A stretch of 64,000 nucleotides of DNA, taken from an uncultured Anaerolineales bacterium. GTDB lineage: Bacteria > Chloroflexota > Anaerolineae > Anaerolineales > UBA11858. Both the position numbers and the translations under genes were made by a program. Numbering within the stretch: position 1 is the first letter of the stretch; each line of letters starts with the position of its first letter. The notes under the pieces were generated by a model. That model was not told where the DNA came from. It was given only the letters and a program-made list of their open reading frames with translations, and searched no databases. Location: contig CAYWFK010000004.1 in the NCBI GenBank assembly GCA_964457375.1, positions 8,499-72,498 on the forward strand, read 5' to 3'. This document shows positions 840 through 59,481 of the stretch, one piece after another.

Positions 840-1067
840 CTTTTACTCCTTATGCATCTGTCAATTAGCAGTTTTCACTGCCGAGACGATAACAGTATAG
901 AAGAATGCCTATCATTCGTCAAGCAAAATCACAAACTCCGCTCTTAAAAAAATCGGCTGAAACCCGTCTCTTTTCCGGCATACACCGAACCTGAGAAGTG
1001 TCCGGTCGTTTCTCCCGTTTTTCCATTTGTTCTTCCGGACAAGAAAAGATACAATAAACAAAGAGAC

Positions 1068-1358
1068 ATGAACAAGACAATCGCGAAAAACGCTCACGTG
1101 GCAAACATCAGCCGAACAGCGCAGTTGGTCAAACAGGCGGAGTTACTCATTCCGCGTCTCGAAAAGTTGCTACCGGATTCGCGCTGGCAGCATCGCGTCA
1201 GCGGAAGCCGCGGCGCACTGCTCCGCCTGACGGCTGCCTACTCCGCAAACCCAAAGCAGGTTCTCTCGCAAGAAGAAGCCGCTTTGCTCGCCCGGGCTGT
1301 CGAGCACGCCTACCATATTCTCGAAACTGCTGCCCTTCAAATCGAAGGAGAAGAATAA
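1068..1358 (+). CDS. hypothetical small helical protein
   Basis: 96-aa ORF with only a weak SD and no recognisable family. It lies in an otherwise empty 770-bp gap. Confidence 0.35.
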   Translation: MNKTIAKNAHVANISRTAQLVKQAELLIPRLEKLLPDSRWQHRVSGSRGALLRLTAAYSANPKQVLSQEEAALLARAVEHAYHILETAALQIEGEE

Positions 1359-1553
1359 TCCTGCATGAACCGCGCTGCCCGGAACCCCGCTTCAACCCGA
1401 TTCCTATTGACGTACTATCTGATTACGCTGCACAGTCTGCTGCCCTAATTTCTCATCCCTTTTGGGGCTGTCTTTGCTCTGTTGCAAACAACCGGGCCTG
1501 GATCTCAACCGGCAAACCGGCACGCTCACCTCCGCCAGCTAACCCTCTATCGA

Positions 1554-1580
1554 AAAGAACCCCGCCGAGCGGGGTTCTTT
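1554..1580. terminator. bidirectional rho-independent terminator hairpin
   Basis: AAAGAACCCCGC-cga-GCGGGGTTCTTT is a 9-bp GC-rich stem flanked by an A-run and a T-run. It sits 29 nt downstream of the minus-strand lipoprotein gene and also downstream of 1068..1358. Confidence 0.65.
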
Positions 1581-1608
1581 GACTTACGCAGGATTACCAG
1601 CTTTCCGT

Positions 1609-2304
1609 TTATTTTCCACCGGAAGCGAATAATTCAAGCTTGTCGTAAACTTTCTTTGCCGCATCCAGAACATAGTCCGGGGAAACATCGACATCCAGAC
1701 CTCTGCCCATCACCCACACCATGACGTTGCGGTATCGAAAAGCAACTTCATAGCGCAAGGTGGTCAGGTTGGAAGCAGCGTTATGTTTCGATGAATGATA
1801 CATGATACATTCATCACCGATATTGCAATCATCGAAAGTTGGCAGTTCCTCATCCGTTTGATAAATCTTGTACCAGTCCTTGCTGATTGCTTTCTTGGCG
1901 CCTTCACTATCCTCGAAGATCTCGATCGTGCTTTCCAAATAGGAAGGAGCAATATCTTCTTTGTTGGCACGGGTCATTTTGATTTGCCAGCCATCGACGC
2001 GCTTACTGGCGACAATGTACTTCTTGCCCAACAATTCTCCTCGTTCATTGATCATAGCCAAATTAGCGTATCTGCCCTCACCACCTGACGGGATGAGATA
2101 ATCATTGGGCAAATCGTCCGGTCTCAAAACCAGATCGCTCATAGCAGTTTGCAAATCTTCCGGTTTGAGATCAGAGCCTGAGAAACCATTGGCGATTTTC
2201 TTGGTAACGATTCCTGAAATGTTCGGCAACGTCGCACATGCTGACAAAATGGCAGCCGAAACTACCAAAACAGCGAGGACGAGAATGAACTTGTTCTTGG
2301 TCAT
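1609..2304 (-). CDS. lipoprotein, function unknown
   Basis: N-terminus MTKNKFILVLAVLVVSAAILSAC is a signal peptide with lipobox L-S-A-C. A terminator follows the gene. Confidence 0.7.
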   Translation of the reverse strand: MTKNKFILVLAVLVVSAAILSACATLPNISGIVTKKIANGFSGSDLKPEDLQTAMSDLVLRPDDLPNDYLIPSGGEGRYANLAMINERGELLGKKYIVASKRVDGWQIKMTRANKEDIAPSYLESTIEIFEDSEGAKKAISKDWYKIYQTDEELPTFDDCNIGDECIMYHSSKHNAASNLTTLRYEVAFRYRNVMVWVMGRGLDVDVSPDYVLDAAKKVYDKLELFASGGK

Positions 2305-2628
2305 CTTTCCACCTCCACGGTTGTAAAACTAATGAGTAGAACGATTTTCGTCTTTTATCCTAACCCACATCCAAACCCCGCCAAATAGGTAAAAAGTCCC
2401 ATCACACACACCGGCACTTCCATTGCCCCCAAAACTCGCCCAATCACAGGTATAATCCTAACAGGAAGACGCCGTTCCCTTGCAGTAAAATAATCACAAC
2501 CGACGTCCGGCAATGAAACCAAACACAGCCCGCGCCCCCCTTCTTGCTCAACCATCGAAAACATTCCTCAGCTGTGCACCTGCAAAACGCCAGCGGACAA
2601 CGAAAATGCACTCCAAGCCCGGAAAATC

Positions 2629-3201
2629 ATGCAAAAACTGCGAAAAACCGATTTGTACTGGCTCCTGGCTTACCCGCTCTACCAGCTGGTTGGCACCCTG
2701 AGGCACGAGTCCGGCCACGCTATCGCCGCACGGTTAGCCGGCGCGCGTATCATCGATTTCGTCTGGTTCCCGACATGGCTGCCCGACAGAGGATTTACCT
2801 GGGGGTACGTCCGCTGGACTGGCCATACCGGATGGCTGGTACTTGCAGCCCCCTACATTGCCGACCTGATTACCTTCCTTCTTTTTTACTACATCTGTAC
2901 ACACGTGCGTTTCCGCAGCCACTGGGTATGGGTGAACTTCGTCATTTTCGGGATGTTTTCTCCGCTGGCGAATTCACTTTACGCTTACCTGCGCGCAGGC
3001 AACCCGTACAGTGACGTCGGCAGGCTGATGAAACTCCTGCCGCAACCGGCGTTACACAGTTATTTTATCCTTACGCTTCTCCTGTATATCCTCGGTTTGG
3101 GAAGCCTCCTTCCCTTCAAGCGCCGCAAAACCATTCCGCAGCAACCCGCCCGGGATCAAACAAGGAGCCGCACCTCACACCATCGAACACCCGAAGCGTA
3201 A
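2629..3201 (+). CDS. polytopic membrane protein with HExxH (M50B-like/DUF3267-like putative zinc peptidase)
   Basis: RHESGHAIAARLAG motif lies near the N-terminus and is followed by several hydrophobic helices. The layout resembles M50B-like membrane metallopeptidases. Confidence 0.55.
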   Translation: MQKLRKTDLYWLLAYPLYQLVGTLRHESGHAIAARLAGARIIDFVWFPTWLPDRGFTWGYVRWTGHTGWLVLAAPYIADLITFLLFYYICTHVRFRSHWVWVNFVIFGMFSPLANSLYAYLRAGNPYSDVGRLMKLLPQPALHSYFILTLLLYILGLGSLLPFKRRKTIPQQPARDQTRSRTSHHRTPEA

Positions 3202-3245
3202 CATTCACCGCCCGCTTCCGGCAGCCCTGGCAGCAGCATGCCTTT

Positions 3246-3488
3246 TCAGGCAATCGACTCTTGCAGCAACTTCGCCAGTTTCGGTATGCCAGGATGTCCA
3301 ACTGCGATAACTTTGTCATCGACCATCAACGCCGGCGTTCTCATCACGCCATACCCCATGATTTTCTCGATGTCGGTAACATACTCAACATCTGCCGTCG
3401 TGTGGTTTTGCTTCACATACGCCTGCACATCCGAATAGAGACGCTTGCACGTCGGGCATCCGGTTCCCAATACTCTTATCGTTGTCAT
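3246..3488 (-). CDS. thioredoxin-fold protein (redox-active disulfide protein 2 type)
   Basis: 80 aa with VLGTGCPTCKRL (CxxC) at the N-terminus and MRTPALMVDDK later. It starts 18 nt downstream of the permease gene, behind an AAAGGA SD. Confidence 0.8.
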   Translation of the reverse strand: MTTIRVLGTGCPTCKRLYSDVQAYVKQNHTTADVEYVTDIEKIMGYGVMRTPALMVDDKVIAVGHPGIPKLAKLLQESIA

Positions 3489-3506
3489 AAACTTTTCCTT
3501 TTCTCA

Positions 3507-4565
3507 TTACAATACAAGATTGAATAAATACCCTGTCGTAATCATTGCAAATACCAGAATTACGATGAAAATGCCGATCAATTTCGGTTTGAGCACACGG
3601 CGCAAAATAATCATTTCCGGCAGGCTCAACCCGACCACGGACATCATAAACGCCAGCACCGTTCCCAATGCAGCCCCTTTCTCCATCAACGCATGCACGA
3701 CCGGAATGATTCCCGCCGCATTGGAATAAAGCGGTACCCCCAGCAACACACCGGCAGGCACCGACCACCACGCGTTCTTCCCCAAAATCTGCGCCAAAGC
3801 ATCTTCCGGAACATATCCATGAATGCCGGCACCGATTGCAATCCCGACAATTACATACAGCCAGACTTTCCCCACAATCTCTTGCGTGCTGTCCCATGCC
3901 GTGCGAAAACGTTCCTCCCAAGTGAGTTTCCCTTTATCGGTTTCCGCATGCCCCACCTTGATTTGCCAGACAAAGTCTTCGACATACCGCTCCAGATTCA
4001 ACCGCCCGATGATGATGCCCGAAACAATCGCAATCACCAGCCCCGTGCCCAGATACAACCCGGCGACTTTCCACCCGAACAATCCGAAAAGCATCACCAA
4101 CGCCACCTCGTTCACCACCGGAGTCGCCGTCAGAAACGAAAATGTTACCCCAAGGGGAATGCCCGACTCGACGAACCCGATAAAAAGCGGCACTGCCGAA
4201 CAGGAACAAAACGGTGTAACCACGCCCAGAAGCGCAGCCAACGCATTACCAATCCCTTCTCGCTTGCCGCCCAGCCATGCACGCGTTTGCTCAGGAGTGA
4301 AAAATGACCGAACGACGGTTATCAGAAAAATCATACCGCCCAGCAAGAGAAGAATTTTCGGCACGTCATAAAAAAAGAATGCCAATGCGTCTCCTATATG
4401 AGAACCTTCGGATTGCCCCAGAAGTCCGTAAACAAACCAGCGGGTAACAGGTTGAAGCGTCCGGTAGACAACAACCCACAACACCGCAATGCCTCCGACA
4501 AGCAAGAAAATTCGTTTGTCCGTGTTCCGCTTGAAAACCCCTGTACTACTGTTACCGCTTTCCAT
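3507..4565 (-). CDS. permease, DUF318/ArsP-like (UPF0718)
   Basis: 352 aa and multi-TM. The TPFCSCSAVPLFIGF motif is characteristic of DUF318/ArsP-type permeases, which are commonly paired with the small thioredoxin-like gene. Confidence 0.8.
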   Translation of the reverse strand: MESGNSSTGVFKRNTDKRIFLLVGGIAVLWVVVYRTLQPVTRWFVYGLLGQSEGSHIGDALAFFFYDVPKILLLLGGMIFLITVVRSFFTPEQTRAWLGGKREGIGNALAALLGVVTPFCSCSAVPLFIGFVESGIPLGVTFSFLTATPVVNEVALVMLFGLFGWKVAGLYLGTGLVIAIVSGIIIGRLNLERYVEDFVWQIKVGHAETDKGKLTWEERFRTAWDSTQEIVGKVWLYVIVGIAIGAGIHGYVPEDALAQILGKNAWWSVPAGVLLGVPLYSNAAGIIPVVHALMEKGAALGTVLAFMMSVVGLSLPEMIILRRVLKPKLIGIFIVILVFAMITTGYLFNLVL

Positions 4566-4649
4566 AGCACCGCCTTCATATTCGTAATCTTGAATATGAT
4601 TATATCCTCTTTATCACGACCAAACACAGACATATTGTCACCTTATCCT

Positions 4650-4665
4650 TGTGATATTCATCACA
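4650..4665. promoter_or_regulatory. perfect CRP/FNR-type palindrome TGTGA-N6-TCACA
   Basis: TGTGATATTCATCACA is read directly. It is centred about 92 nt upstream of the permease start (4565, minus strand) in a 303-bp divergent intergenic region. Confidence 0.4.
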
Positions 4666-4868
4666 GAATTTCAAGAAGCCAATACGGGCATAACACCCCG
4701 CCTGTATCCCCTCTCTTGTTATCACCAAGAGACAAAAATTAAATTATATCGACCCCGGGCAGGCGCTCCGGCGGCCAAACCGGATTGGGAATTGGCAAAA
4801 CCGGAAATCTAACCTAGAATAGAAAAAACAAGGCACGTCACACATATAAAAGGAACAAGGCATTCCGA

Positions 4869-9556: not shown

Positions 9557-12500
9557 TTACCCGGCTATTCCTCGCAGCATGCTGTCCGCCAGCATTTCCG
9601 GATCCGGATTTTCCATGTAACCATCCGACAAGGTTACATCGAGTTTTTTATCCATCGCAAAGCGTTCCGCCTCGGCTTTCACTTCCCCCAGGCAAGCAGG
9701 GTTCCCTATGACAGCAGCCAGTAAACCCGCCGCCTTCTCCGTATCTCCGCTATCGTAAATCCTCTTTGCCCAAACGAATAAAATTTCCAGCATCAATGGC
9801 CGGGAACGAATCTCACTAGCGATCTTCCATGCCTTCTGCAAATGAGTCAACACATCACGCTCCCGATGAACCTTCATCGCCAGCTTGCCCAGCTCCAGAT
9901 ACGTATGCCCGCTTCCGGACTCGTTTCCAAGCTGCATTTTCAAAGCCAGGCTGTCAGCAAAGAAACGCTGCGCTGTGTCGATATTCCCCTTCCTTACAGC
10001 CGCCATTCCCAAATTATGCAATGCGGTCGCCTTGCTGGAAAGCAGCTCGATTTCCGTGCTCAAGGCGTAGCTGCGTCGGAAGTAATCCTCGGCTTTGTCT
10101 GTTTCCTCACGTGCCAGCGCCAGCAATCCCAGGTTATTGAGACAAAACACATTCCCTTTACGTTCCCCAATCTCTTGGCAAATCGCCAAAGACTTTTGAA
10201 AATAAACTTCTGCCTGCTGATACTTTCCCCATTCTTTTGCCAGCAAACCACAATTATTATAAACTCCGGCAACGCTACGCTGGTCATGCAAGATATCGAA
10301 AGCATGCAAAGCATCTTTCAAACAAGCAGCAGCCGAAGCATACTGCCCAAGCCGCCGGTAAATCACACCGAGGTTGTTTTGCAAACTTCCCTTTCGTGAA
10401 AGGTCACCGCTTTCCGTGAAATACGTCAGGCTTGCTTCCCAATATTCAAGCGCCTTATCGAACTTGCCTTGACGGCTGACGAGAATGCCCAGGTTGTTTT
10501 CACAAAGTGCTTTCCCCCTGAAATTGCCAAGCTGTTGGTTTATCCTGCGGCTGTTTTCATAACATTCATACGAAAGAGACCAATCTCCTGTGTTGTATCC
10601 GATTTGTCCGAGGTTAAGCAAACAAAACGCCTGAGTCTCTTTGTCATCCTTCTCTGTTGAGATATCCAGGCTCGACTGTAAATCAGCGCGTGCTTCCCGA
10701 TAAGAAGACAAGCGCATTTTGAACACACCCGCGTATGCCAGCAAACGGGCAAACAGCCGGGTTCTCTTTGCTGCCTCTTCCCGCTTGCCAAAAGTCTCAA
10801 CAGCTTTCGTGAAAGCGTCCAGTCCCTGCGCTTCCCACCCTTGCAGAGAATAAAACCGAAACAATCCCGGCGCCATCTGCCAAACAAGCTCATCTTCTCC
10901 GGCAGTCAACGCCCATTTCCAGGCGGCTGACAGGTTTCCGTTTTCACTTCGGAGCAATTTCAAAACAGCTGCCTGCTCTTCCCCGAACATCGCCGGTGCT
11001 TTCCCGGCCAAAAAACAGGCACACCAAACCGCATGGCTTCGTCTCACCTGAACAGCCGCATCCGGGAATTCATCCAGTTTCTTCCTTGCAAAACGGTGCA
11101 CCAAACCATGCATCTGAAACCGGTTTTCGCCTGCATCGAAACGCAGCAGCGATTTATCGACCAACCCAAAAACCAGTCCACTTATCCGCTCGGTCGCCTG
11201 CTTTCCACCCTCAGCGTCACCACGCTTCCATCTTGCCAGCACATCATCGGCTGCTTCGAAAGTAAATCCGCCCATGAAAACCGACAATGCCATGAACGCT
11301 TCCCGCTCTCTTCGCGTCAGTAAATCCCAGGAGCACGTGAACACTGCCTGCAAACTGCGATGCCGCTCCGGCACATTCCGAATATCGGACCGAAGAGTCC
11401 CCATCCGTTGTTCCATGAACCCAAAAATTCGGGAGCAGGAATGCACCCGCACCAAAGCGGCGGCAAGCTCCACCCCCAGAGGAAGCCCCTCCACAAGCGA
11501 ACAAATCCCGACAATCGCCTGCAAATCAGCACCCGACGGCTCAAAACAAGCCTGTACTTGCCGGGAACGTTCGAGAAACAGTTGAACAGCCTGATAACTA
11601 TCGACAGGTTTGGCATCATCTTCACGTTCAGGATATTGAAACCCCCGCACCTCGAACAACCATTCCGCAGCCAGCCTCACAGCTTGCCTTGATGTCACCA
11701 GCAAGACCACTGATTTCGCTTCCCGCAGAATTTCTTCCAGAAAATCCACACCGGCTGCGTCGCCGGCAAGGAATTGTTCGAAATTATCCAGCACCAGTAA
11801 CAATTCCTTTTTTCGCAAAAAATCGATTACCTTCCCGGGCAAATCGTCTTTCCCCCAAAAAGAAACCGAGAGGCTTTCCGCAATAGCCATCACCAAAGCC
11901 GGGAATTGTGAAACCGCATCCAGCGGAACAAAATAGACCCCGTCTCTGAACGCAAAGGTTTGCTCCATCGCAGCTTGCAATGCCAGCCGTGTTTTTCCAA
12001 CCCCACCCACCCCTGCCAAAGTCAGCATCCTGCATGCAGGGTTTTGCAATTTTCCTGCAATCTGTTTTAGCTCCTCTTCCCTGCCAACGAACGACGTGAA
12101 CTGCATCGGAAAACCGGCGGGAGGTGGAGACTGCGGCATTGCCGGCATCTCTCCAGTACGTATCTGCTCATACAACCGCCGGATCGATTCTGTCGGTTCG
12201 ATACCCAGCTCATCAGCCAGAATTTTCCTGCACACCTGATATTGTTTCAGGGCGGTGCTGCGTTCACCGCAATGAACAAGCAGCAGCATCAGTTGCTCAT
12301 AAGCTGTTTCCCGCCACGGGTCGATTTCCACTTGGCGATAGGCAAAGTCAAGTGCCCGTTCATACTTCATTTGCCGAATGTAATACTGCACCAATGCAGA
12401 AAATACATACTGTGCTTGCTGGTCATATCTTTCCCGCCGTAAAGCAATCCAATTCTGCATCTGATGACTTCCATTCAGAAACATGCCTTCCAGAAAATGC

Positions 12501-13000
12501 CCGCGAAACAAGCCGGCTGCCATTTCCAGATGCTCACAGCATGTTTTGCATGCTTCGATTTTCCTGTGCGAGTGATTTTTTGCAGTCACCACCAAAGAAG
12601 AAAACGTCTCGACATCCAGGTTGTACGCACTCTCCGGATTGAATTGAATATCCTGCCGGGAAATTCGCAACCGGGGCGGACTCGCCGCAGCATCCCTGAT
12701 TACGCTGCGCAAATTTGCCAAAGCGTCCCGCAGATTTTTCAGCGCAACCTTTTCAGACCGTCCGGGCCAAAGCATTTCTGCTAAAACTTCACGGCTATGG
12801 GGACGTCCGGATTCGACCATCAGATAAGCCAGCAAGATACGTACTTTCTGCGAATCAAAATGCGTCAGGTTCACATCATCCAAACCCGCCTGAAATACCC
12901 CCAAGAGAGACACTCCCAATTGCGCCATTAATATGATTATAGCAGAGGAGATTATCTCCCCCGGCGTTTTCCCGACGCTTGATTTGTAGAATGGATCCAT
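9557..13000 (-). CDS. SARP/BTAD - NB-ARC (STAND) ATPase - TPR transcriptional regulator (AfsR-like)
   Basis: N-terminal winged-helix plus BTAD region (ERALDFAYRQVEIDPWRETAYEQLMLLLVHCGERSTALKQYQVCRKILADELGIEPT). Walker A is AGVGGVGKT and Walker B is LLLVLDNFEQ, followed by about 450 aa of TPR repeats (NNLG...A..Y...SL). The true start may be the internal ATG at 12928 (MAQLGVSLLGVF). Confidence 0.9.
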   Translation of the reverse strand: MDPFYKSSVGKTPGEIISSAIIILMAQLGVSLLGVFQAGLDDVNLTHFDSQKVRILLAYLMVESGRPHSREVLAEMLWPGRSEKVALKNLRDALANLRSVIRDAAASPPRLRISRQDIQFNPESAYNLDVETFSSLVVTAKNHSHRKIEACKTCCEHLEMAAGLFRGHFLEGMFLNGSHQMQNWIALRRERYDQQAQYVFSALVQYYIRQMKYERALDFAYRQVEIDPWRETAYEQLMLLLVHCGERSTALKQYQVCRKILADELGIEPTESIRRLYEQIRTGEMPAMPQSPPPAGFPMQFTSFVGREEELKQIAGKLQNPACRMLTLAGVGGVGKTRLALQAAMEQTFAFRDGVYFVPLDAVSQFPALVMAIAESLSVSFWGKDDLPGKVIDFLRKKELLLVLDNFEQFLAGDAAGVDFLEEILREAKSVVLLVTSRQAVRLAAEWLFEVRGFQYPEREDDAKPVDSYQAVQLFLERSRQVQACFEPSGADLQAIVGICSLVEGLPLGVELAAALVRVHSCSRIFGFMEQRMGTLRSDIRNVPERHRSLQAVFTCSWDLLTRREREAFMALSVFMGGFTFEAADDVLARWKRGDAEGGKQATERISGLVFGLVDKSLLRFDAGENRFQMHGLVHRFARKKLDEFPDAAVQVRRSHAVWCACFLAGKAPAMFGEEQAAVLKLLRSENGNLSAAWKWALTAGEDELVWQMAPGLFRFYSLQGWEAQGLDAFTKAVETFGKREEAAKRTRLFARLLAYAGVFKMRLSSYREARADLQSSLDISTEKDDKETQAFCLLNLGQIGYNTGDWSLSYECYENSRRINQQLGNFRGKALCENNLGILVSRQGKFDKALEYWEASLTYFTESGDLSRKGSLQNNLGVIYRRLGQYASAAACLKDALHAFDILHDQRSVAGVYNNCGLLAKEWGKYQQAEVYFQKSLAICQEIGERKGNVFCLNNLGLLALAREETDKAEDYFRRSYALSTEIELLSSKATALHNLGMAAVRKGNIDTAQRFFADSLALKMQLGNESGSGHTYLELGKLAMKVHRERDVLTHLQKAWKIASEIRSRPLMLEILFVWAKRIYDSGDTEKAAGLLAAVIGNPACLGEVKAEAERFAMDKKLDVTLSDGYMENPDPEMLADSMLRGIAG

Positions 13001-13226
13001 GACACCTTCGGAACCCGATTATTTCGCCTATCTCCTTCGTTTATGGACAGTTACAGAAAACGGGAAACTTATATGGTTGGCTTCTCTGGAAGACCCGCTT
13101 ACTTCCGAACGTAAAGGCTTCTCTTCGATTGAAAATTTGTATGCCTTTCTCGAAAAACAAATCTCGCTTTCTGAAGAGGAAAAAGCGCGCAATCAAGTTC
13201 ATGATTCCCGCGATGCCGGGGAATAA
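12999..13226 (+). CDS. small conserved-looking hypothetical protein (YLLRLW...ASLEDP...FSS.E.L..FL)
   Basis: 75-aa ORF that is the first gene of the operon divergent from the SARP regulator, 23 nt upstream of the next CDS. From memory the motif pattern resembles small ORFs seen beside STAND/LuxR regulators. There is no clear SD. Confidence 0.4.
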   Translation: MTPSEPDYFAYLLRLWTVTENGKLIWLASLEDPLTSERKGFSSIENLYAFLEKQISLSEEEKARNQVHDSRDAGE

Positions 13227-13249
13227 CACAACCATCAAGGAATAAAACC

Positions 13250-15046
13250 ATGATCAACAAACGCAGCTTTCTTGTATTACTGGCAATGTGCCTGCTTTCC
13301 TTTACCGGACAAAGTGCCGCTCAGCCATCAGTCACTTCTCAATCCGGCGGCGATGGCACCACCGAGGACACCTCACCGGCAGCCACAACGCTGCTTGTCT
13401 CGCTGGAAACCAACCCGCTTGTCGTCGACACCGGTATCAACGAAAACATCACCCTCATTGCACACACAGACGGGTCGATTGACAGTGCATCCGTTTCACT
13501 TGCCAACGGCACGACAGTGCCCATGACGAAACTCGGCATCGGGCTTTTCAGTGTCGTACTCACCCATCAACAGGTTTTGTACCATTACAACCAAACACTT
13601 TACCCGAATGTCAACCGTTATGGATTCATCAATCTTTTCATCGGAAGTTTCCGCGTTCTTCGCGGCAGGCTGGATATTGGCGTCGATGACGGCAAATTCC
13701 CGTCCGCAGCCATCTCATCGCTCGCATCAGACGCTCAGGCCACACCGCACCTGGTCAACATCGTCCGCAGTTTTGTCGATCCGTCCAAAATCGACCAGCA
13801 GGCAGTCACCAAACGTTTCTATCAGCTTTATGGGGACGATTATGATTTCATCAATATCATTTCCGTCCCCGAACACTTTTCGAACCGCTATCATTATCAA
13901 GTCAAAAATACCGTTTCCGGCATCGGTTTGAGCAAATTCGATAATACCGCAGACTATGGCAGCGCCGGAAAACTTAAGGGCATCACCCGTTTCCCAATTC
14001 CGGTTCTGTATTTCGACGGTGCATCCCGCGCACACTCCCACGAAACCGCACATCAATGGCTCCAGTTTCTTAATAATGTCACCAAACTTCAGGGAATAAC
14101 CCCGCACTGGCCTATATCCGAATTAGCCCGTTCGGTCATGGGGTACAGTTCAACGGGAGGTCAAGGGCTTGACTTCCCCTGGAATCTAACCCCCAAGGGG
14201 AACGGCGATTACACAGCCCATTACACCCCGCTTGCCGACGATTACTTCCAAAACATGGATCTCTATCTCATGGGTTTTGCCGCTCCGTCCGAGGTTGGCA
14301 ACTATGTTGTCTTTACCAATCAAAACCAAACTCTCTGCGATGGCTGCACCATTACCAAACCGACTGTGTCGGTCGGGGTTCAGGATGTTACCGCCCAATA
14401 CGGCGCCCGTACCCCCGGTTATCCGAACACACAGCATCATTTCAGAATCGCCACCATCATCGTATCGAAGCAGCTTCTCTCAGCCAGGAACATGAAATAT
14501 TTCGATTATTTCTCCCGGCGGGGCGAAGCCATGATTCCCATTCAGGGAAACATCCCCTGGTTCAATGCCACAAAACAGCGCAGCACGCTATCCATGGGGC
14601 TAGGCAATGATTGCAACACAAACACCACAGCCGACCTTTGGATATACAGCCACACCACATCCCCCGTTGTTCCTCAAGTCAACACTCAATTTACTATCTA
14701 CGCATCTGTAAACAACGCATCTGCCAATACTTCCCATCAACTTACCATCTTCAACACGTTGTCAAATGGGCTTACCTTCATTTCGGCAAAACTAAACGGC
14801 AGTACGTCCCGTTGTTATGGTGACAAAACCATCATTTGCACCTTCGATACCCTTCATGCAAGCGAGAACTTGACTCTGGCGATAACCGTTCGCGCAGCAA
14901 CCAAGGGCTATTATTTTCATCGCATCGGTGTTTCCGGCTGTAACCCCGACCAGACACCCACCGACAACGCTGCAACCCTCACAATTCCGGTCGGCATTCA
15001 ATTCAACAACAAAATTTATATTCCATTCGTTATCAAAAGCCAATAA
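13250..15046 (+). CDS. secreted HExxH (gluzincin-like) putative metallopeptidase with C-terminal DUF11-type domain and YIPFVIK tail
   Basis: Signal peptide MINKRSFLVLLAMCLLSFTGQSAAQ. HETAHQW resembles the M1 HExxHQW motif and a Glu lies 23 aa downstream. DLYLMGF is also present. The C-terminal roughly 110 aa look like a DUF11 repeat, and the protein ends NNKIYIPFVIKSQ. Confidence 0.75.
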   Translation: MINKRSFLVLLAMCLLSFTGQSAAQPSVTSQSGGDGTTEDTSPAATTLLVSLETNPLVVDTGINENITLIAHTDGSIDSASVSLANGTTVPMTKLGIGLFSVVLTHQQVLYHYNQTLYPNVNRYGFINLFIGSFRVLRGRLDIGVDDGKFPSAAISSLASDAQATPHLVNIVRSFVDPSKIDQQAVTKRFYQLYGDDYDFINIISVPEHFSNRYHYQVKNTVSGIGLSKFDNTADYGSAGKLKGITRFPIPVLYFDGASRAHSHETAHQWLQFLNNVTKLQGITPHWPISELARSVMGYSSTGGQGLDFPWNLTPKGNGDYTAHYTPLADDYFQNMDLYLMGFAAPSEVGNYVVFTNQNQTLCDGCTITKPTVSVGVQDVTAQYGARTPGYPNTQHHFRIATIIVSKQLLSARNMKYFDYFSRRGEAMIPIQGNIPWFNATKQRSTLSMGLGNDCNTNTTADLWIYSHTTSPVVPQVNTQFTIYASVNNASANTSHQLTIFNTLSNGLTFISAKLNGSTSRCYGDKTIICTFDTLHASENLTLAITVRAATKGYYFHRIGVSGCNPDQTPTDNAATLTIPVGIQFNNKIYIPFVIKSQ

Positions 15047-15076
15047 ACCCTGTTCCCCAAAACAAAGGAAAAAGTC

Positions 15077-16594
15077 ATGTTCCTGAAAACAGATGTCATC
15101 AAACGCCCACTTGAAAAAGGAATGCAAATCGTCAAAACGTGTTTACCATTCATGCTCATGGTAGTCATGGCAATCCCGATAAGCTTCTTCAACCGGGAAT
15201 CAGTCAGCGCCGCGCCGCAATCTACCTTCATCGTAGTCGCCGACGCTGATGATTCAAACGCCCATGATAAAAACCCAGGAGACGGTATTTGTGCCGACCA
15301 ATTGGATACCTGCACCTTGCGGGCTGCAATTGAAGAAGCAAACGCCCATCATGGCGCAGATACGATTACATTCTCTCAACAGATGTCCATTATGATCGAT
15401 AGTACAGAAGGCCCCCTGCCTGCCCTGGTCAAAACGGTGAAAATCGACGCCAGCAGCATGTGGAATACAACCCTCGACCAGCCGGGAGTAACAATCAATG
15501 GGAACGGCGCTCATTTCAACGGACTTCGAATTTCCGCCCTCTACTGTGAAGTTTACGGACTGACGATTAGAAATTTCTATTGGAGTGCTATTATCATCAA
15601 TACAAGCAACAACACCATTGGGGGCACAACGAAAACACAGAGAAACGTCATTTCCGCCAATGCAAATAACGGGATTGCCATCCTTGGCAATCAGGCGAAT
15701 TCGAACACAATTCAGGGGAACTTCATTGGCATCAATCCAAAGGGAAACGCAAAATTACCGAATAAACACAACGGCATTCTCATAAAAGACGGTGCATCTT
15801 ACAACAAGATTGTTTCCAATGTCATTTCCGGTAATCTTCTGGATGGTATTCTCATCCAGTCTTCCAATACGCAACTCAGCTACGGAAACAAAATCGGCAA
15901 CAATGTCATCGGTCTTTCTGATGACCTCGGCACAATAATTCCCAACAAAGGAAACGGCATCAGCATCATGTCATCACCGAATACAAAAATCGGCGGTCCC
16001 GGCCTTTCCGGAAATATGATTACCGGGAACAGTATCAACGGCATCTATCTTTTTGCATCAAACGATACCCTGATTCAAGATAACATCATCGCCGGAAACA
16101 ACCAGGATGGCATCTATATCCACAATAGCCAAAAAACGAATGTCCTTTCCAATATCATCGACAATCAGGAACAAAACGGGATACTCATCAATGGCAGCAC
16201 CGGGAGCACTGCCAACAAAAACAATCTCACCCGGAACAGTATTTATTCCAACAAAAAGAAAGGGATTTCCCTGATAGGGAACAGCAACAACAATATTCAA
16301 CCCCCAATCATCGGTTCCGCAAACAGCCACGGTGCAGCAGGAACCGTTCCCAATGGCGTCCGCATTGTCGCAGTTTTTTCAGATAGTGAGAATGAAGGGA
16401 AAATTTACCACGGGCAATGTATCGTCAATACAATCACCCACCAATGGTTTTATACCGGTGCGATTACCGGCCCGCATGTAACTGCACTCGCATATGACCT
16501 CGATGGCAATACATCCGAGTTCTCAACGCCTTACACAATCAGCAATCCGGGTAGTTACCAGATTTATCTGCCATTCGTCTTGCGCAACCCCTAA
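15077..16594 (+). CDS. secreted parallel beta-helix repeat protein with CSLREA-like N-terminal module and YLPFVLR tail
   Basis: Signal/anchor sequence, then GDGICADQLDTCTLRAAIEEANAHHGADTITF, a CSLREA-domain variant. More than 12 PbH1-like repeats follow (N.I.GN...GI.I). DLDGNTSEFS is present and the protein ends SYQIYLPFVLRNP. Confidence 0.8.
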   Translation: MFLKTDVIKRPLEKGMQIVKTCLPFMLMVVMAIPISFFNRESVSAAPQSTFIVVADADDSNAHDKNPGDGICADQLDTCTLRAAIEEANAHHGADTITFSQQMSIMIDSTEGPLPALVKTVKIDASSMWNTTLDQPGVTINGNGAHFNGLRISALYCEVYGLTIRNFYWSAIIINTSNNTIGGTTKTQRNVISANANNGIAILGNQANSNTIQGNFIGINPKGNAKLPNKHNGILIKDGASYNKIVSNVISGNLLDGILIQSSNTQLSYGNKIGNNVIGLSDDLGTIIPNKGNGISIMSSPNTKIGGPGLSGNMITGNSINGIYLFASNDTLIQDNIIAGNNQDGIYIHNSQKTNVLSNIIDNQEQNGILINGSTGSTANKNNLTRNSIYSNKKKGISLIGNSNNNIQPPIIGSANSHGAAGTVPNGVRIVAVFSDSENEGKIYHGQCIVNTITHQWFYTGAITGPHVTALAYDLDGNTSEFSTPYTISNPGSYQIYLPFVLRNP

Positions 16595-19729: not shown

Positions 19730-21406
19730 TTATGGCAATCCGCTGGCTTTGGCAGCCAAAGGAAGAAAAATAAACCACCCCGGATAAAAAGCGTTGTTCG
19801 AAACCCCCGACCAATCCCCATTTGTATTTTGTGTTTTCAGTGCAAAGTAAATCGTCGCATGCCCAACAGAAACGGCATCCGAGAAGAAATCCCGTGTGCC
19901 TGTCAACGAATCCGTCAACACGCTGGCAGCATGCCAGTTCTCATCGCTAATCAATCCGCCGCTATACCGCAGCGTTGTCGTAATTGCGAATTGCGGCGGT
20001 GTCCAGTGCAAGGTAAACGTCAGAACACCGCCCTTGCTGATAACATCGGTAAGCCGCAAATCGCCAATCGCTTGCGGCACCGGCAGAACATACTCATCCG
20101 CGCCAATATCCGCGGCACTGCCGGCAGGGCGTTCATCCCCGTCGAAATCATCGCGTACCTCCGGAAGCAAAGAAACCTGGTCGATATAAGAAACTGCATG
20201 CGGTTTCAGGTGCAGATCGCCGCCGGCGACATCCACAAAGGAAGCCATGGGAACATTTTCCCGGTTATCTGACAACACGGCACTGCCCCCACGGTCACGC
20301 AGATTGTGGCTCACCAGATTGTTTCTGATTTCAGCAGAAGTATGGCCAAAGCGCCATTCGATCGATGAAAACGGAGCAACAGTCGAGGCAACCGAATTAT
20401 GCAGCACTTTTGCACCACAAGCCTGTGCAAGGCAAATGCCGCAATCGAAGCCGAACGCCGAAGCAAACAAGGCGCTGCTTCCGGCTGAAACAAAGTTGTT
20501 GCGGATCATTCCGCCGTAATGTTCGACAAACCCGCCGCCGGCACCCGGGCAAGGATTATCCGCATATGTGCGGCCGCTTCCGTTTTCTGTCAATCCCAAA
20601 CCGATCCCCCGTGCATTGTCCATCAATTGATTGCGCTCAATCAGCGTATCTCTGCTGCCCCGCCAAAAGTGAATCCCGTGCTCCGAAAGCCCGCTTTCAC
20701 ACCAAAACCCCTCGATTAGATTATCGCGAATCAACCAGCCCCTTGCCTGATGGGCATCGATTCCCCCGGTGTAACAATCGTCATGGATATGCGAACGTCC
20801 CGCATTCGTCAAACGGATTACCGAACAGGCAACCGTACCGTCATCCGGAAAATGCGCCGAATCCACCGGGTTTATCTTGATTGCCTGCTGACCGGGATCG
20901 ATGATATGCACATTGTAAATCAATGTGCCGGTAACATCCGCTGATGAAGTAGACATCACGTGAATCGGATGGTGAACGGCTCTCCTTATCGTCAAGTCAG
21001 CTACGGTGGCATTCGAAGCCACAATCTGGATGATTTCATCGGACAGATAATTTCCATCGAGAACCACAGCATCCGGGTTTCCGCTCGCCGAACGCAGGGT
21101 AACACCAGCCGTATCGATACGCAGATACGCACCATCCAGCGAATAGTTTCCATCCGCCAGCAGAATTGTCGTGCTCACGGCAGCATGGTTGACCGCATCG
21201 ACAAGCCCGGTCACGTTATCAACGTGAACAACATTACCGGCAGCCATTGGCAGCACTCCGCAATGACGGCGCACCGTTCGAGGCGAGGCAGGCGCTTGCG
21301 AATACACGCGCACAGCCTGCACCCAGACTCCGGAAAACGCAACTGCCAGAAATAAAACAGGAAAAACAATCAGCAAACCGCGGAAGTGGATATTTTTGGT
21401 TTTCAT
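19730..21406 (-). CDS. secreted right-handed beta-helix protein with Fn3-like C-terminal domain and FLPLAAK tail
   Basis: Start at ATG 21406 (MKTKNIHFRGLLIVFPVLFLAVAFSG is the signal). Beta-helix repeats include NLIEGFWCESG..HGIHFW and RNQLMDNARGIGLG. DIGADEY is present and the protein ends GWFIFLPLAAKASGLP. Confidence 0.8.
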   Translation of the reverse strand: MKTKNIHFRGLLIVFPVLFLAVAFSGVWVQAVRVYSQAPASPRTVRRHCGVLPMAAGNVVHVDNVTGLVDAVNHAAVSTTILLADGNYSLDGAYLRIDTAGVTLRSASGNPDAVVLDGNYLSDEIIQIVASNATVADLTIRRAVHHPIHVMSTSSADVTGTLIYNVHIIDPGQQAIKINPVDSAHFPDDGTVACSVIRLTNAGRSHIHDDCYTGGIDAHQARGWLIRDNLIEGFWCESGLSEHGIHFWRGSRDTLIERNQLMDNARGIGLGLTENGSGRTYADNPCPGAGGGFVEHYGGMIRNNFVSAGSSALFASAFGFDCGICLAQACGAKVLHNSVASTVAPFSSIEWRFGHTSAEIRNNLVSHNLRDRGGSAVLSDNRENVPMASFVDVAGGDLHLKPHAVSYIDQVSLLPEVRDDFDGDERPAGSAADIGADEYVLPVPQAIGDLRLTDVISKGGVLTFTLHWTPPQFAITTTLRYSGGLISDENWHAASVLTDSLTGTRDFFSDAVSVGHATIYFALKTQNTNGDWSGVSNNAFYPGWFIFLPLAAKASGLP

Positions 21407-21426
21407 GCCTGTCCGTTCCTTGCCAT

Positions 21427-23790
21427 TCAAGGCAAATAACCGCGAAAGATCACGGGAAGATATTGCATCGCCCCGCCAACCAGCAGACGGGCAATCGCGG
21501 TTCGTATGTCACCGTTGCTTTTTCCGTCGACAGGTACGGCATACCAGACGCCCGGCGAGGTTAACACAGTATGCGTATCGGTCATCGTCAAGCGGGCGGT
21601 ATTCCCCGGGTTCACCTGCAACGGTGTCAGATAAACGTCCAAACCGGCCATCGTAATGGGCACACTCAGGCTGACTGTTCCGGTAAACCCGCCGACAGCC
21701 CGCACACTTACAGTAAAAACCGCCGTCTCCCCCGGGGCGATTTGCATCACGGGGGGCAGCACATCAAGCGCAAAACCGCTGCCCTCATATTCGAAAGCGC
21801 CAATATCCGGGGCGCTGCCATTGAAGGCATCATTGATACCGGGAAGTACCACGCCCGCATCGATCAAACTACTGGATTCCCCCAGCGTATAATCCGCAGA
21901 AGCGGCATCAACAAAACCCGGTTTGGCATCCGTTCCATGCTGCTCTTGCCCGGTCTTCGTTCGAAACACATTCAAAGAGCGCATATGCCGATCCGGACCG
22001 CTTCCCCAATAAACATACTCATCCGGATTGGATGTATACAGATCATCGTAATCGAAATTGATTGGCTGGGTTTCATTATAATCGTTCAATGCATAATTCG
22101 TCCCTGCCCAGATATTGTTACGGCTGACAATGTTTTTCCAGCTGCCGGGTGCCTTGATGTAAATACCATTGTTCCCAGGCAGCGCCGCATCGCTGGTGTT
22201 ATGAAACAAATACATCACGCCCGATTTCCCGTAACCGCTGTTGAACTTGAACGGGCTTCCCGAAAAGGTATTGTTTCCCGCACCGGTATGATAAATCAGG
22301 TTGCGAATGACAAAGACAGGTCCTTTATAGACCGGTGCCAGAGAAATGCCCATCAGAACATCATGAAAAGTATTCGACCAGATGCGCACATTGCTGCAAG
22401 TGCCGTCGGTTTCCACACCGTCATCACCCGCGTTGTAAACCAGATTTTCGTAAAAATCAGTTTCGCTCGTCTCGCTCCCGGCCGTCTCAGGGCATATCCC
22501 CAGGCCATCGAAATAATCATGAAAAGAATTGCGTCGAATCACATTTCCCCGCCCGGTCATCGGGCTATAAAACCGAACTCCGCCGGTTTCCAGCCTGCTT
22601 CCTCCCTTGACAGCATGCCAATCCCATTGAAAATCCGTATCGCGAAAAGTATTATGCTGAATCAGGTTACGGTTCGAATTGCGTTTGAACCCGATACCCA
22701 GATCATTGAGTTCGAAAGTGCAATGCTGAACCAGATTATCGTTCGCATTATTGAAATACAGCGCCTTTGCCCAATTCCCCCGGCCATAATGCCGAAAAAC
22801 AAGATGATCGAAATAAATTGCGTCCTGTTCGATTGCGAAAGCATAATTGAAACGTGAAACCACAATCGCAGCACTGCTCGGGTTTTTGTCGCCGGCCAGA
22901 TGCACATACAAAACCTTGCCGTTTGCATAAAAACCGGGAATTCCCCAAACCAGGTTTTGCAAATCGGAAAGGCTTTGATAAGGATAAAGCCGCTGCCCGT
23001 CAGCGGTCACCAAATGCGTATCAGGCGCATGAACATTTGTCCGGTAGATACCCCCGCCCTGATCCTGCCAGGAAAACGTCGCCGGATCTCCTCCGTCGAG
23101 AATCGCCTTCTCACCGGTATAACTGCGAATGACGATTGGCGCACCGGCGCCCCCCGAACAAGGCATATCCATTTCTCCGCGGTAATAAACACCCCCTCGC
23201 AAAACCACCGCATCACCCGCATGCGCCATACCCAGCGCTTGCTCCAGCGCACAGGGCGCAGCCAGCGAGCAAACCATCCCGGAGCCGTCCGGGCTGGCAA
23301 CGAAGGTATGCAGCGGAGCAGGCAGGGACAATTCCGGGCGTGTTACTCCCGAAGCATCGAGAACGGTTCCGTTTAACGGGCCATTGTCCGGGTCTGCCAA
23401 AGAAACCCGCACAACCACCTGCTCTGCCGGTTTCAGCCAGAAGATGCTGCCGGCAAAACGCGTTGCCGATATGCGGGTAAGTGGGAAACCCTGCCGGTAT
23501 CCACCGCCCGCACCTTCCCGGTAGGTCAGTGTAGCCGTGGCATCCTCGTCCGGGTCATCATTTGCGTCAATTGCAACGATAACACCCATCGAATGATAAT
23601 TCCCGAAAAGCGAAAGCGCTGCTGCCGCAGGCGCCAACGAATTTGAGACGTCTCCGTGTTGCATTTGCCCCGCGCGCACGGAACTTGTATCTTCGGCTTG
23701 CGCGGCAATCACACCGGCGCGGGTAACCATTACTGTCAAAACCAATATAACAACCGGCAAACCAAACCGATACCACTTTGTTTGTATCAT
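21427..23790 (-). CDS. secreted right-handed beta-helix (pectate-lyase-fold) protein with Ig-like domains and YLPVIFR tail
   Basis: Signal peptide MIQTKWYRFGLPVVILVLTVMVTRAGVIAAQA. There is a long beta-helix region (NLVQHCTFELNDLGIGF, NLIQHNTF, IRRNSFHD, RIWSNTFHD). PDIGAFEYEG is present, followed by an Ig-like C-terminal domain, and the protein ends AMQYLPVIFRGYLP. Confidence 0.8.
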   Translation of the reverse strand: MIQTKWYRFGLPVVILVLTVMVTRAGVIAAQAEDTSSVRAGQMQHGDVSNSLAPAAAALSLFGNYHSMGVIVAIDANDDPDEDATATLTYREGAGGGYRQGFPLTRISATRFAGSIFWLKPAEQVVVRVSLADPDNGPLNGTVLDASGVTRPELSLPAPLHTFVASPDGSGMVCSLAAPCALEQALGMAHAGDAVVLRGGVYYRGEMDMPCSGGAGAPIVIRSYTGEKAILDGGDPATFSWQDQGGGIYRTNVHAPDTHLVTADGQRLYPYQSLSDLQNLVWGIPGFYANGKVLYVHLAGDKNPSSAAIVVSRFNYAFAIEQDAIYFDHLVFRHYGRGNWAKALYFNNANDNLVQHCTFELNDLGIGFKRNSNRNLIQHNTFRDTDFQWDWHAVKGGSRLETGGVRFYSPMTGRGNVIRRNSFHDYFDGLGICPETAGSETSETDFYENLVYNAGDDGVETDGTCSNVRIWSNTFHDVLMGISLAPVYKGPVFVIRNLIYHTGAGNNTFSGSPFKFNSGYGKSGVMYLFHNTSDAALPGNNGIYIKAPGSWKNIVSRNNIWAGTNYALNDYNETQPINFDYDDLYTSNPDEYVYWGSGPDRHMRSLNVFRTKTGQEQHGTDAKPGFVDAASADYTLGESSSLIDAGVVLPGINDAFNGSAPDIGAFEYEGSGFALDVLPPVMQIAPGETAVFTVSVRAVGGFTGTVSLSVPITMAGLDVYLTPLQVNPGNTARLTMTDTHTVLTSPGVWYAVPVDGKSNGDIRTAIARLLVGGAMQYLPVIFRGYLP

Positions 23791-57554: not shown

Positions 57555-58931
57555 TTACTTGCCTTTTGCAACCAAAGGCAAAAAGACCGGCAATCCCTGA
57601 TGCGCCACTTTCAGATTGCCTTTGGCTGGTAAAAGATATTTGTTAAGTTCCCGATAAGCGATTTTTGCCAAACCCGCCGAATTGACATCCACGGCAACCC
57701 CCATACCTTCATCTACCCAGGAATTTCCCCTATCCACAACTTCGCAATACCATGAAAAGAAAGGGTTTTGGGGACCGCAATTGGTTTTTCCCGGAAGGGC
57801 GGCAATTGCGCTGCCCGGTCTGGCAACCTTTACCACTGCCGGGGCAGAAGAGACAGCAACACTTTGATAAGCAATCAACGGGTAACCGTTTCCGTCTTTC
57901 ACAATAGCCATGCCCATTGGCTTGGCACTCGAACCGACATCATCGATTTTTTCACACTGCCACTCCCAGTGCATCGACACACTGCTGAAACCACAATTCC
58001 CGCCGGTGCCGATATAAGCCGCATATTCCAGGGTGGAACTTGTCACGTTTTGATACGCAATGTGTGGCGTACCGTTGTTCTCCACATACAGCGAAACGAA
58101 CTTGCCGGTATCCAGCGTGTTTTGCTTCACGCTCCTGCTCACCCAGAGTGACCCGGTGTAGGATACGACCACCGGTGTTTTGTTCGTCGAATGGTAATAA
58201 GCCACCGATGGTTTTCCATTCGCATCGATATCAAGCGAAGCATAATAACCGACACCTTTTCCTGATGCCACAACGTCACATTGCCACTTATTGAGAACAA
58301 TACCGGTACCGCAATTACCGGTCCCGTTACCCACATAATGCGCCACGATAAGTTCTTTCGATAATGCTGTGCTATGCTGGTAGGCAACATAAGGAACCCC
58401 ATTGGTATTAAATTTCACCGAGGTATATTTACCATAATACGACAAAACCGATAAGGAAGACTGAACCTTGTACCGATTCCAGTTCAGCCCGCTGGAAACA
58501 TTATTGCCAAGGATGTAGTACAAACCGTGATTGGTTGCATCGTAATACGTAATGATGAATTTCACACCGTTTAAGGTATGTATCGTATCGATCGAATTGT
58601 ACATACCCACATCGCCGCTGGAAACAAGTTTATGACAATGCCACATATTCGCCGGCCCGCAATTTCCGGCTTTCCCGTCGAAAATGGCAAGATACAGGTC
58701 TTTTCCTGCTGCATCGTAATAACTGACAAAGATCTGTCCGGTTACCGGTTCGACAGAAATCGCCACATGCTCACTCACATCAGGCGTCTTATCAATTCGA
58801 TTGATAACCCAACGTGCATTTCCCAGCGATTGAGGCGGTATGACCGATAAGGTTTTCGCAAAACCCGTCAAGATCAAAACGCCCGAAAACACCAGAGAAA
58901 CCAAAATAGCCGCAAGTCGTTTCGTTTTCAT
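57555..58931 (-). CDS. secreted 7-blade beta-propeller-like repeat protein with Cys loops and FLPLVAK tail (paralogue 1)
   Basis: Start at ATG 58931 behind GAGGAG. After the signal/anchor come seven repeats of about 45-60 aa (G.Y.S...D..G.P.IAY...L..A). Four repeats carry a [GT]NCG-x(4-10)-W-x-C loop. The protein ends LPVFLPLVAKGK. Confidence 0.8.
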   Translation of the reverse strand: MKTKRLAAILVSLVFSGVLILTGFAKTLSVIPPQSLGNARWVINRIDKTPDVSEHVAISVEPVTGQIFVSYYDAAGKDLYLAIFDGKAGNCGPANMWHCHKLVSSGDVGMYNSIDTIHTLNGVKFIITYYDATNHGLYYILGNNVSSGLNWNRYKVQSSLSVLSYYGKYTSVKFNTNGVPYVAYQHSTALSKELIVAHYVGNGTGNCGTGIVLNKWQCDVVASGKGVGYYASLDIDANGKPSVAYYHSTNKTPVVVSYTGSLWVSRSVKQNTLDTGKFVSLYVENNGTPHIAYQNVTSSTLEYAAYIGTGGNCGFSSVSMHWEWQCEKIDDVGSSAKPMGMAIVKDGNGYPLIAYQSVAVSSAPAVVKVARPGSAIAALPGKTNCGPQNPFFSWYCEVVDRGNSWVDEGMGVAVDVNSAGLAKIAYRELNKYLLPAKGNLKVAHQGLPVFLPLVAKGK

Positions 58932-59380
58932 TACGATTCTCCTCTCTCCAAACAAACCCATACGCGCAAGCCACATCAGAGACTTGCTTTACGCATTTAA
59001 TAGAATGGGAATCGCATCTTTGTTTTCCCCCGCGCACTTAATCTTCGTAAAATCCCGAAGCAAAGTTACAAAATCACAGTGATGAATGAGCTGTTCGTCA
59101 CAATCATCATCATAAAAATACCAAATTAACGTACAAATGTCAAATATACTTTTGGGCAGCCATAAACTACAATGAGTTGCACACGCTCAGTTTTTCATCA
59201 ATCCCACTACGCTTTCTCTGAAAACCGGAAAAATGATTAGTTGGTGAACCCGGTCAACAGCCATTCATGCGGGAACAATTCCCGGCAGGCGTTACCGGCA
59301 AAACATCAATCATAGCGATGATGCACATTTTCAGCATTCCGCGAAAATCGATAAAATCGCCATCTCGCCACAAACGACAA

Positions 59381-59412
59381 GCGCAAGCCCGGGAAAACCG
59401 TCCGGCTTGCGC
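59381..59412 (-). terminator. probable terminator of paralogue 2
   Basis: On the minus strand a GCGCAAGCCGG / CCGGGCTTGCGC stem with one bulge is followed by TTGTCGTTTG. Confidence 0.5.
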
Positions 59413-59481
59413 CTTGGTTGTTGATACATGCTCCGAATTGTTTTCGGGTCTGCTCTGTTTTCGCCCTATTCAGCAGCCGGT

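Follow-up and report, generated by a model that had tools for sequence, protein, structure and literature searches.

The window considered here, a 64,000-nucleotide stretch of DNA from an uncultured Anaerolineales bacterium (Chloroflexota), covers positions 8499-72498 of contig C4 in a 2.95-Mb metagenome-assembled genome (MAG) with approximately 50% G+C, and near-identical DNA is present in epibiont and hydrothermal-vent metagenome runs. Within this window the gene of a SARP-NB-ARC-TPR regulator, that is, a "large SARP" of the AfsR type, diverges from an operon for one small cytoplasmic and two exported proteins, and the DNA between them carries a pair of direct repeats followed by a -10 element. 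A preliminary description of this DNA had listed four open reading frames (ORFs) at 9557-13000 (minus strand), 12999-13226, 13250-15046 and 15077-16594 (all plus strand), the last three separated by gaps of 23 nt (13226 to 13250) and 30 nt (15046 to 15077), and all of them were found as described. Based on comparative sequence analysis of uncultured genomes, which is the source of all evidence presented below, we consider it fairly probable that the locus represents a conserved Chloroflexota cassette, where an AfsR-type STAND activator would drive the divergent operon of a small protein and exported cargo via the repeat box.

Regulator, divergent control region and operon

The features of the locus are as follows.

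9557-12928 (longest frame to 13000), minus strand: SARP-NB-ARC-TPR (AfsR-type "large SARP") regulator (domain scans, AfsR match, homologue alignment)
12158-12928, minus strand: SARP domain of the regulator, OmpR-type winged helix plus BTAD, residues 25-281 (PF00486, PF03704, AfsR alignment)
11081-12091, minus strand: NB-ARC/NOD ATPase, residues ~304-640 (Pfam, AfsR match, motifs)
9779-10687, minus strand: TPR sensor array, residues ~772-1074 (TPR_12, six stretches, 129 bits)
12929-12998, no strand: divergent control region, 70 bp (sequence reading)
12936-12941, minus strand: TATAAT, candidate leaderless promoter of the regulator (sequence reading and inference)
12960-12981, plus strand: putative SARP box formed by the 11-bp direct repeats CCCGGCGTTTT and CCCGACGCTTG (sequence reading)
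12987-12992, plus strand: -10 element TAGAAT of the operon promoter (sequence reading)
12999-13226, plus strand: small cytoplasmic protein, 75 aa (translation, homologues, AlphaFold2 model)
13250-15046, plus strand: secreted HExxH protein (translation, Pfam, homologues, AlphaFold2 model)
15077-16594, plus strand: secreted right-handed beta-helix protein (translation, Pfam, NCBIfam)

The winged-helix/BTAD region, P-loop, Walker B motif and TPR array ascribed to the regulator in the preliminary description were all recovered by motif and domain scans. BTAD (PF03704) scores 93.3 bits over a cut-off of 22.1, while the winged helix (Trans_reg_C, PF00486) is marginal, with 23.2 bits under a cut-off of 26.2; the alignment with AfsR over the SARP domain spans residues 31-283 of the regulator. 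The predicted recognition helix reads ALKNLRDALANLRS. The central part is matched by NB-ARC (23.6 bits, cut-off 23.5) and AAA_16 (35.5 bits) and contains Walker A GVGGVGKT at residue 330, Walker B LLVLDNFEQ at 401, LLVTSR at 433 and GLPLG at 505; TPR_12 collects 128.7 bits over its six stretches. Among solved structures the best match is AfsR itself (8K60), aligned over residues 31-640 and 897-1059. Nevertheless, the score of 124.8 bits against the NCBIfam AfsR equivalog NF053617 lies far below its cut-off of 1430, so the protein is a family-level relative rather than an AfsR orthologue. By every sequence-level test applied, it is a member of the large SARPs. At the place of the "HD" latch of AfsR and NLR proteins the regulator has MHG (residues 630-632 within FQMHGLV, ~11108-11116); the histidine is kept in nearly all Chloroflexota homologues, whereas the next residue is usually Glu and is Gly here. 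In AfsR, mutation of the "HD" motif makes the protein constitutively active (bioRxiv 10.64898/2026.09.02.748808).

The 1147-aa frame proposed for the regulator does exist, and its ATG shares two bases with the ATG of the small ORF. Since homologues align only from residue 24-28 onward, the start is most likely M25 (12928, MAQLGVSLLGVF), giving a product of ~1123 aa rather than 1147 and leaving the spacer 12929-12998, in agreement with the ~70 bp expected for the divergent region.

A search of this spacer for SARP-type direct repeats had been recommended, and two of them are present at 11-bp spacing, their first seven bases differing at one position. TAGAAT starts 5 bp past the box and its end lies 6 nt before the ATG at 12999, so closely that the operon mRNA is probably leaderless. 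Neither a -35 consensus nor a sigma-70 -35/-10 pair was found in the promoter region of the operon, and the generic scan for promoters and terminators was uninformative, its counts being equal to those in shuffled sequences. Counted from a transcription start at the A of this ATG, the box occupies -39 to -18, to be compared with -40 to -19 for the afs box of AfsR (PMC10936776). Small SARPs (ActII-ORF4, DnrI, and RedD) likewise recognise direct repeats with 11- or 22-bp spacing by the -10 element and activate adjacent genes (PMC10936776). As read from the sequence, the direct repeats and -10 element of the window match the geometry of the afs box, and the region has the hallmark of SARP target promoters, i.e. 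direct repeats, spaced by 11 or 22 bp, that overlap the -35 position.

On the opposite strand, TATAAT lies 7 nt upstream of the likely ATG of the regulator (12928), so near that both divergent genes may be leaderless. The corresponding -35 position would overlap the upstream repeat of the box, which makes autoregulation possible. A 13-bp palindrome, GGAGATTATCTCC, occupies 12947-12959 between the two -10 elements.

Recurrence of the cassette and co-variation of its repeat box

Among 41 relatives, 15 contain homologues of the small ORF, frequently with several copies. In nearly all of 20 regions fetched around these matches, the small ORF stands head-to-head with a SARP-NB-ARC-TPR homologue; large proteins with signal peptides come after it, many with the ending [IV][YF]LP[LIF][VI]x[KR]. 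The related loci that carry a taxonomic name come nearly all from Chloroflexota, mainly Anaerolineae. An independent set of loci came from a scan in which each GTDB species was represented by one genome and the query was a pattern derived from the small protein alone. This yielded 65 loci, 63 in Chloroflexota and one each in an Acidobacteriota MAG and a Planctomycetota MAG; four have no upstream sequence, and arrangements are therefore counted over 61. ORFs in the fetched loci were called by a simple longest-ORF heuristic, and signal peptides and tails were recognised by crude patterns. The SARP gene is located upstream of the small ORF and divergent from it in 50 of the 61 loci, in accordance with the expectation that the regulator should stay next to the operon in related genomes, and the full distribution is the following.

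SARP divergent, within 450 bp: 34 loci
SARP divergent, 0.5-5 kb off, an exported-protein gene preceding the small ORF in most: 16 loci
SARP nearby, in other orientation: 6 loci
No SARP found: 5 loci

The genes following the small ORF are far from random. The tail occurs in 17 of 65 cargo genes (26%), while of the 2084 ORFs taken as genome background 44 (2%) have it (odds ratio 16, p = 3e-13), and a signal-peptide-like N-terminus is found in 71% of cargo versus 27% of background. The identity of the cargo varies from locus to locus, whereas the small ORF is constant. Thus, of the proposal that the regulator is targeted to secreted proteins, the enrichment in secreted and tail-bearing products is borne out, yet the conserved target would be the small ORF, the secreted proteins being exchanged.

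The repeat/-10 arrangement is visible by eye in most related loci. A strict repeat test was passed by 11 of 23 upstream regions from the first set (relatives), while 0.38 is expected from shuffles. In the independent set, exact 7-mer repeats at 11-bp spacing combined with TAnnnT occur in 19 of 49 loci versus 0.07 in shuffles; other spacings (8-10 and 12-14) give 0 or 1 of 49, and the -10 element sits 8-10 bp past the second heptamer in 16 of the 19. The repeat sequence itself differs among loci, tracking the predicted recognition helix of the adjacent regulator.

Helix ALH[NS]LRQ, repeat TTTGACG: ~10 loci
Helix ARTNLRQ[IV]LT, repeat TATCACG: 4 loci
Helix ALANLRS, repeat CTGATCG: 4 loci
Helix ARKNLRQALSNLRK, repeat CCTGACG: 4 loci
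Helix ALSNLRY / AMSNLRY, repeat CCCCACG: 2 loci
Helix ALKNLRDALANLRS (window), repeat CCCG[GA]CG: 1 locus

Such a pattern, to which the shared ancestry of whole cassettes contributes, would nonetheless be expected of regulator-site pairs insulated from their paralogues.

Searched genome-wide with no more than one mismatch, the box of the window has its only match in promoter context at this locus, plus one match without such context. Repeats of the window type were absent upstream of 23790 (minus strand) and 61206 (plus strand). The other tail-bearing genes of the window (19730-23790 and 57555-62453), for which a test for a shared upstream motif had been suggested, thus lack this box.

Uniqueness of the box bears on a rather unlikely alternative, in which the small protein serves as an AfsS-like relay: it would be the sole meaningful target and would itself act as a pleiotropic regulator elsewhere in the genome, possibly on the other tail-bearing genes, and the adjacent secreted genes would be co-transcribed passengers having no special tie to the SARP-STAND regulator. 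A wider effect from a single box would indeed require a relay, the AfsR/afsS pair sets a precedent, the small ORF is invariant with variable cargo, and ~18 of the 65 loci have no same-strand gene of at least 100 aa after it. However, passengers would hardly be so strongly non-random in being exported and tail-bearing, in 16 loci an exported-protein gene stands between the box and the small ORF, and the small protein, which is acidic (net charge about -6 by our count), shows no DNA-binding fold.

Within its own genome the cassette of the window is not the only one, since a small ORF of this family and tail-bearing proteins accompany three of the four BTAD genes (on C4, on C65 and, with a more distant relationship, on C42). 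The second full cassette (C65:1063-11439) contains a SARP-STAND gene at 1063-4485 (minus strand) with the box TTCACGATTTGTTCACG directly after its start codon, a small ORF at ~4615-4830 (plus strand), a secreted protein of ~500 aa ending in ..VVIEYTINTPY, another of ~100 aa ending in ..YKIYLPMVID, and two further tail-bearing genes on the other strand. In a probable third cassette (C42:14814-20551) a 1290-aa BTAD regulator precedes a 79-aa ORF of the same strand, and after this comes a 420-aa exported protein ending in ..IIFIPMVVSSK. The 79-aa product, which belongs to the WxGxxxHxxSGE subtype, is distantly related to the small protein (hhalign E = 1.6e-4) and matches the second domain of P0008, a database relative of the small protein, with a BLASTP E of 4e-7.

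The small protein and the exported cargo

The 75-aa product carries the motif YLLRLW..W.ASLEDP..ER.GF and no signal peptide. Its conserved core comprises Y8, L12, L13, R14, W16, W26, S29-P33, G40 and F41; the N-terminal 55 residues are conserved, while the tail is hypervariable. Scans with Pfam and NCBIfam, performed for the single sequence and for 22 members, assigned it to no family, and all named members retrieved by cluster look-ups and profile search are "hypothetical proteins", none with a Pfam domain. The 22-sequence profile matched 7,755 representative clusters at E <= 1e-3, or 3,121 when the threshold is set to E <= 1e-10, nearly all being 60-150 aa long; the top match, 3802 aa long with 33 stretches, was discarded as a repetitive translation artefact. 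AlphaFold2 predicts a confident three-stranded sheet and a long helix (beta-beta-beta-alpha, predicted local distance difference test score (pLDDT) ~95 for residues 11-50), followed by a disordered, acidic tail. With this confident model, the PDB fold search gave nothing better than E = 0.38 (monellin, PAS, and PUR fragments). Judged by the number of clusters and the confident predicted fold, the small protein belongs to a genuine protein family. Some clusters contain two or three tandem copies of the beta-beta-beta-alpha unit (database relatives P0006, P0007, P0008 and P0028), which hints that the unit may work as a dimer. Over the phylum the distribution is patchy, the small ORF being detected in 24 of 201 genomes with up to 15 copies per genome, always as a short free-standing frame.

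A conserved N-terminal part with a variable tail might also be read as leader and core of a ribosomally synthesized peptide precursor or exported signal, with the TPR protein engaged in its maturation or sensing, and the best NCBIfam matches of the NOD-TPR part of the regulator, far below cut-offs, are in fact TPR proteins from systems for ribosomally synthesized and post-translationally modified peptides (HaaT and FxSxx-COOH). We regard this as scarcely probable, given a product that has no signal peptide and whose conserved part folds as a confident domain, tails that are acidic and disordered with no enrichment in Cys, Ser or Thr, and cassettes containing neither a modifying enzyme nor a transporter.

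The second protein of the operon consists of a signal peptide, an immunoglobulin (Ig)-like N-terminal domain, an HExxH core of ~300 aa, a DUF11 domain and the tail KIYIPFVIKSQ. Its earlier designation as a secreted HExxH protein is borne out with regard to the motif, which reads HETAH (HETAHQW), and to its conservation: among 47 homologues E265 and H268 are invariant, H264 and H286 being conserved in at least 90%. A peptidase fold is another matter, because in a whole-chain Foldseek search with the confident AlphaFold2 model (pLDDT 85) matches were dominated by Ig-like modules, leaving this fold unconfirmed, and comparison with Pfam, NCBIfam and PDB sequences gave no metallopeptidase match. 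The HExxH core defines a widespread unnamed family, whose relatives (P0156-P0242) carry other C-terminal modules, namely type 9 secretion system (T9SS) Por_Secre_tail, DUF11, Big_2, FN3 and DUF4350, and one of them is named "choice-of-anchor X". This fits surface or exported proteins whose C-terminus would decide on anchoring, and the "choice-of-anchor" pattern suggests that the YLP tail may be the anchor or sorting signal here.

In the third protein, previously described as a CSLREA beta-helix protein, the beta-helix is solid (PF13229, 58.4 bits), while the supposed CSLREA motif reads CTLRAA and with 19.4 bits stays below the TIGR04214 cut-off of 25. This protein ends in QIYLPFVLRNP. Thus both exported proteins share the YLP tail as proposed, ending 4-5 residues past the [YF][LI]PFV motif. 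A signal of sortase or exosortase type (LPXTG, PEP-CTERM), which combines a motif with a transmembrane helix and a basic cluster, was rejected, as such a tail leaves no room for a membrane helix. Genome-wide, depending on the pattern used, ~28-44 ORFs end in [IVF][YF][LI]P[LFIM][VIA] no more than 8 residues from the stop, and at least eight of them lie within ~12 kb of the three SARP-STAND genes of the genome. A second recurrent ending of cargo proteins (..Y[IV][ED][IV]SY[TV]TEIAP and ..IEYTINTPY; loci L016, L017, L018 and C65) is distinct from the YLP-type tail, on which our literature search found no paper.

A zincin-like enzyme and a beta-helix protein could likewise be viewed as secreted effectors of an NLR-type conflict or self/non-self recognition module, with the STAND protein sensing an invader or neighbour and the small protein providing immunity or acting as adaptor. 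Filamentous bacteria, among them Chloroflexi, have expanded sets of NLR-like STAND proteins (bioRxiv 10.1101/2020.01.06.895854); a variable cargo with a conserved HExxH core and the multiplicity of small ORFs, at least 5 of the 15 copies in one genome being head-to-head with a SARP, go in the same direction. We consider this quite unlikely, since what the STAND protein carries as effector is neither a toxin nor an amyloid signalling motif but a transcription-activating domain, for which a fitting promoter element is present, and since the cargo, as judged from Pfam and Foldseek matches, rather resembles adhesin- or enzyme-like surface proteins (Ig-like, DUF11, and beta-helix).

Proposed mode of action and relation to AfsR-afsS

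In the reading we prefer, that of a conserved activator-operon cassette, the regulator, with its SARP domain, NB-ARC ATPase switch and TPR sensor, would bind the two 11-bp repeats as a side-by-side dimer, and the repeats would take the place of a -35 element in the divergent promoter. On the model of AfsR, the SARP domain would be restrained by the NOD and TPR domains until ATP and a cue at the TPR array release it. Once activated, the regulator would recruit RNA polymerase, which in turn would transcribe the putatively leaderless operon, i.e. the small cytoplasmic protein and then the Sec-exported surface proteins with the [IV][YF][LI]P[LF]V tail, so that the small protein represents the invariant output and the exported proteins an exchangeable cargo. 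Most likely the small protein in addition feeds back on the cognate regulator, or serves as an adaptor for it or for RNA polymerase, comparable to afsS below AfsR. Its strict one-to-one pairing with the regulator, its place in the putatively activated operon, its variable and acidic tail and the tendency of TPR domains to bind peptides speak for such a role. The signal-gated remodelling of the cell surface envisaged in the preliminary description remains an inference.

Several observations weigh against this scheme. Many SARP-STAND genes of the relatives have no small-ORF partner (18 BTAD genes versus 4 small ORFs in G012, for instance), no fusions involving the small protein were seen among the family matches, and the PDB fold search gave no structural analogue of the small protein. 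The repeats of the window are G+C-only heptamers with one mismatch, and as such they were dropped by the complexity filter of the strict scan; the co-variation of box and helix is confounded by the shared ancestry of whole cassettes. No RNA runs with this sequence were found either, the matching runs being of DNA only.

A more far-reaching version, which we consider less likely than not, assumes that proteins with the YLLRLW..WRASLE signature are phylum-wide obligate partners of large SARPs (NLR-type transcription factors), each being produced from the repeat-box promoter of its regulator and binding back to it, plausibly with the acidic tail in the TPR groove. Every cassette would then constitute a self-contained and paralogue-insulated feedback switch that sets the time at which its surface proteins are deployed.

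The closest known counterpart is the AfsR-afsS system of Streptomyces coelicolor (PDB 8K60, 8JKE; PMC10936776). Both regulators have the same order of domains (OmpR-type winged helix-turn-helix plus BTAD, NOD/NB-ARC, and TPR), both are associated with a 22-bp box in which two 11-bp direct repeats overlap the -35 position (-39 to -18 here and -40 to -19 for AfsR), and an adjacent gene for a protein of ~65-75 aa with no known fold family is the direct target of AfsR and the putative one here. The systems differ in the host phylum, Chloroflexota here and Actinomycetota there, and in layout, since the small gene of the window is divergent and heads an operon for exported proteins, whereas afsS is located 3' of afsR and has its downstream effect on antibiotic clusters. 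The partners also look unrelated. AfsS is a repeat-containing protein, whereas the small protein described here is predicted to be a folded beta-beta-beta-alpha domain of a large unnamed family. As far as can be judged from sequences, small-protein pairing and promoter geometry parallel those of AfsR-afsS, while the phylum, divergent layout, exported cargo and folded small partner differ.

ActII-ORF4, DnrI and RedD, in contrast, have neither NB-ARC nor TPR domains and control biosynthetic clusters, not small and exported proteins as putatively here. STAND activators of the MalT/GutR type resemble the regulator as switches gated by ATP and inducer, combining sensor repeats with a DNA-binding effector domain, although in their case the DNA-binding domain is LuxR-type and C-terminal and the inducers are known sugars. 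We know of no obligate small-protein partner gene for activators of this type.

AfsR-type large SARPs have so far been known almost exclusively for switching antibiotic production in actinomycetes, and what activates their sensor domain is an open question (PMC10936776; bioRxiv 10.64898/2026.09.02.748808); our literature search found no paper tying AfsR or SARP regulators to Chloroflexota. In the cassette an AfsR-type machine, together with its promoter geometry, is apparently coupled to exported surface proteins in another phylum, and regulation is linked with a hitherto undescribed C-terminal tail, the YLP type, of exoproteins from Chloroflexota. The many naturally occurring combinations of helix and box provide a ready-made specificity table for DNA recognition by SARPs. 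As to the missing input or feedback element, the constant small partner, a member of an unnamed family with several thousand clusters, offers itself as a concrete candidate, and if it does bind back to its regulator, it would be the first protein ligand defined for the sensor domain of an AfsR-type regulator.

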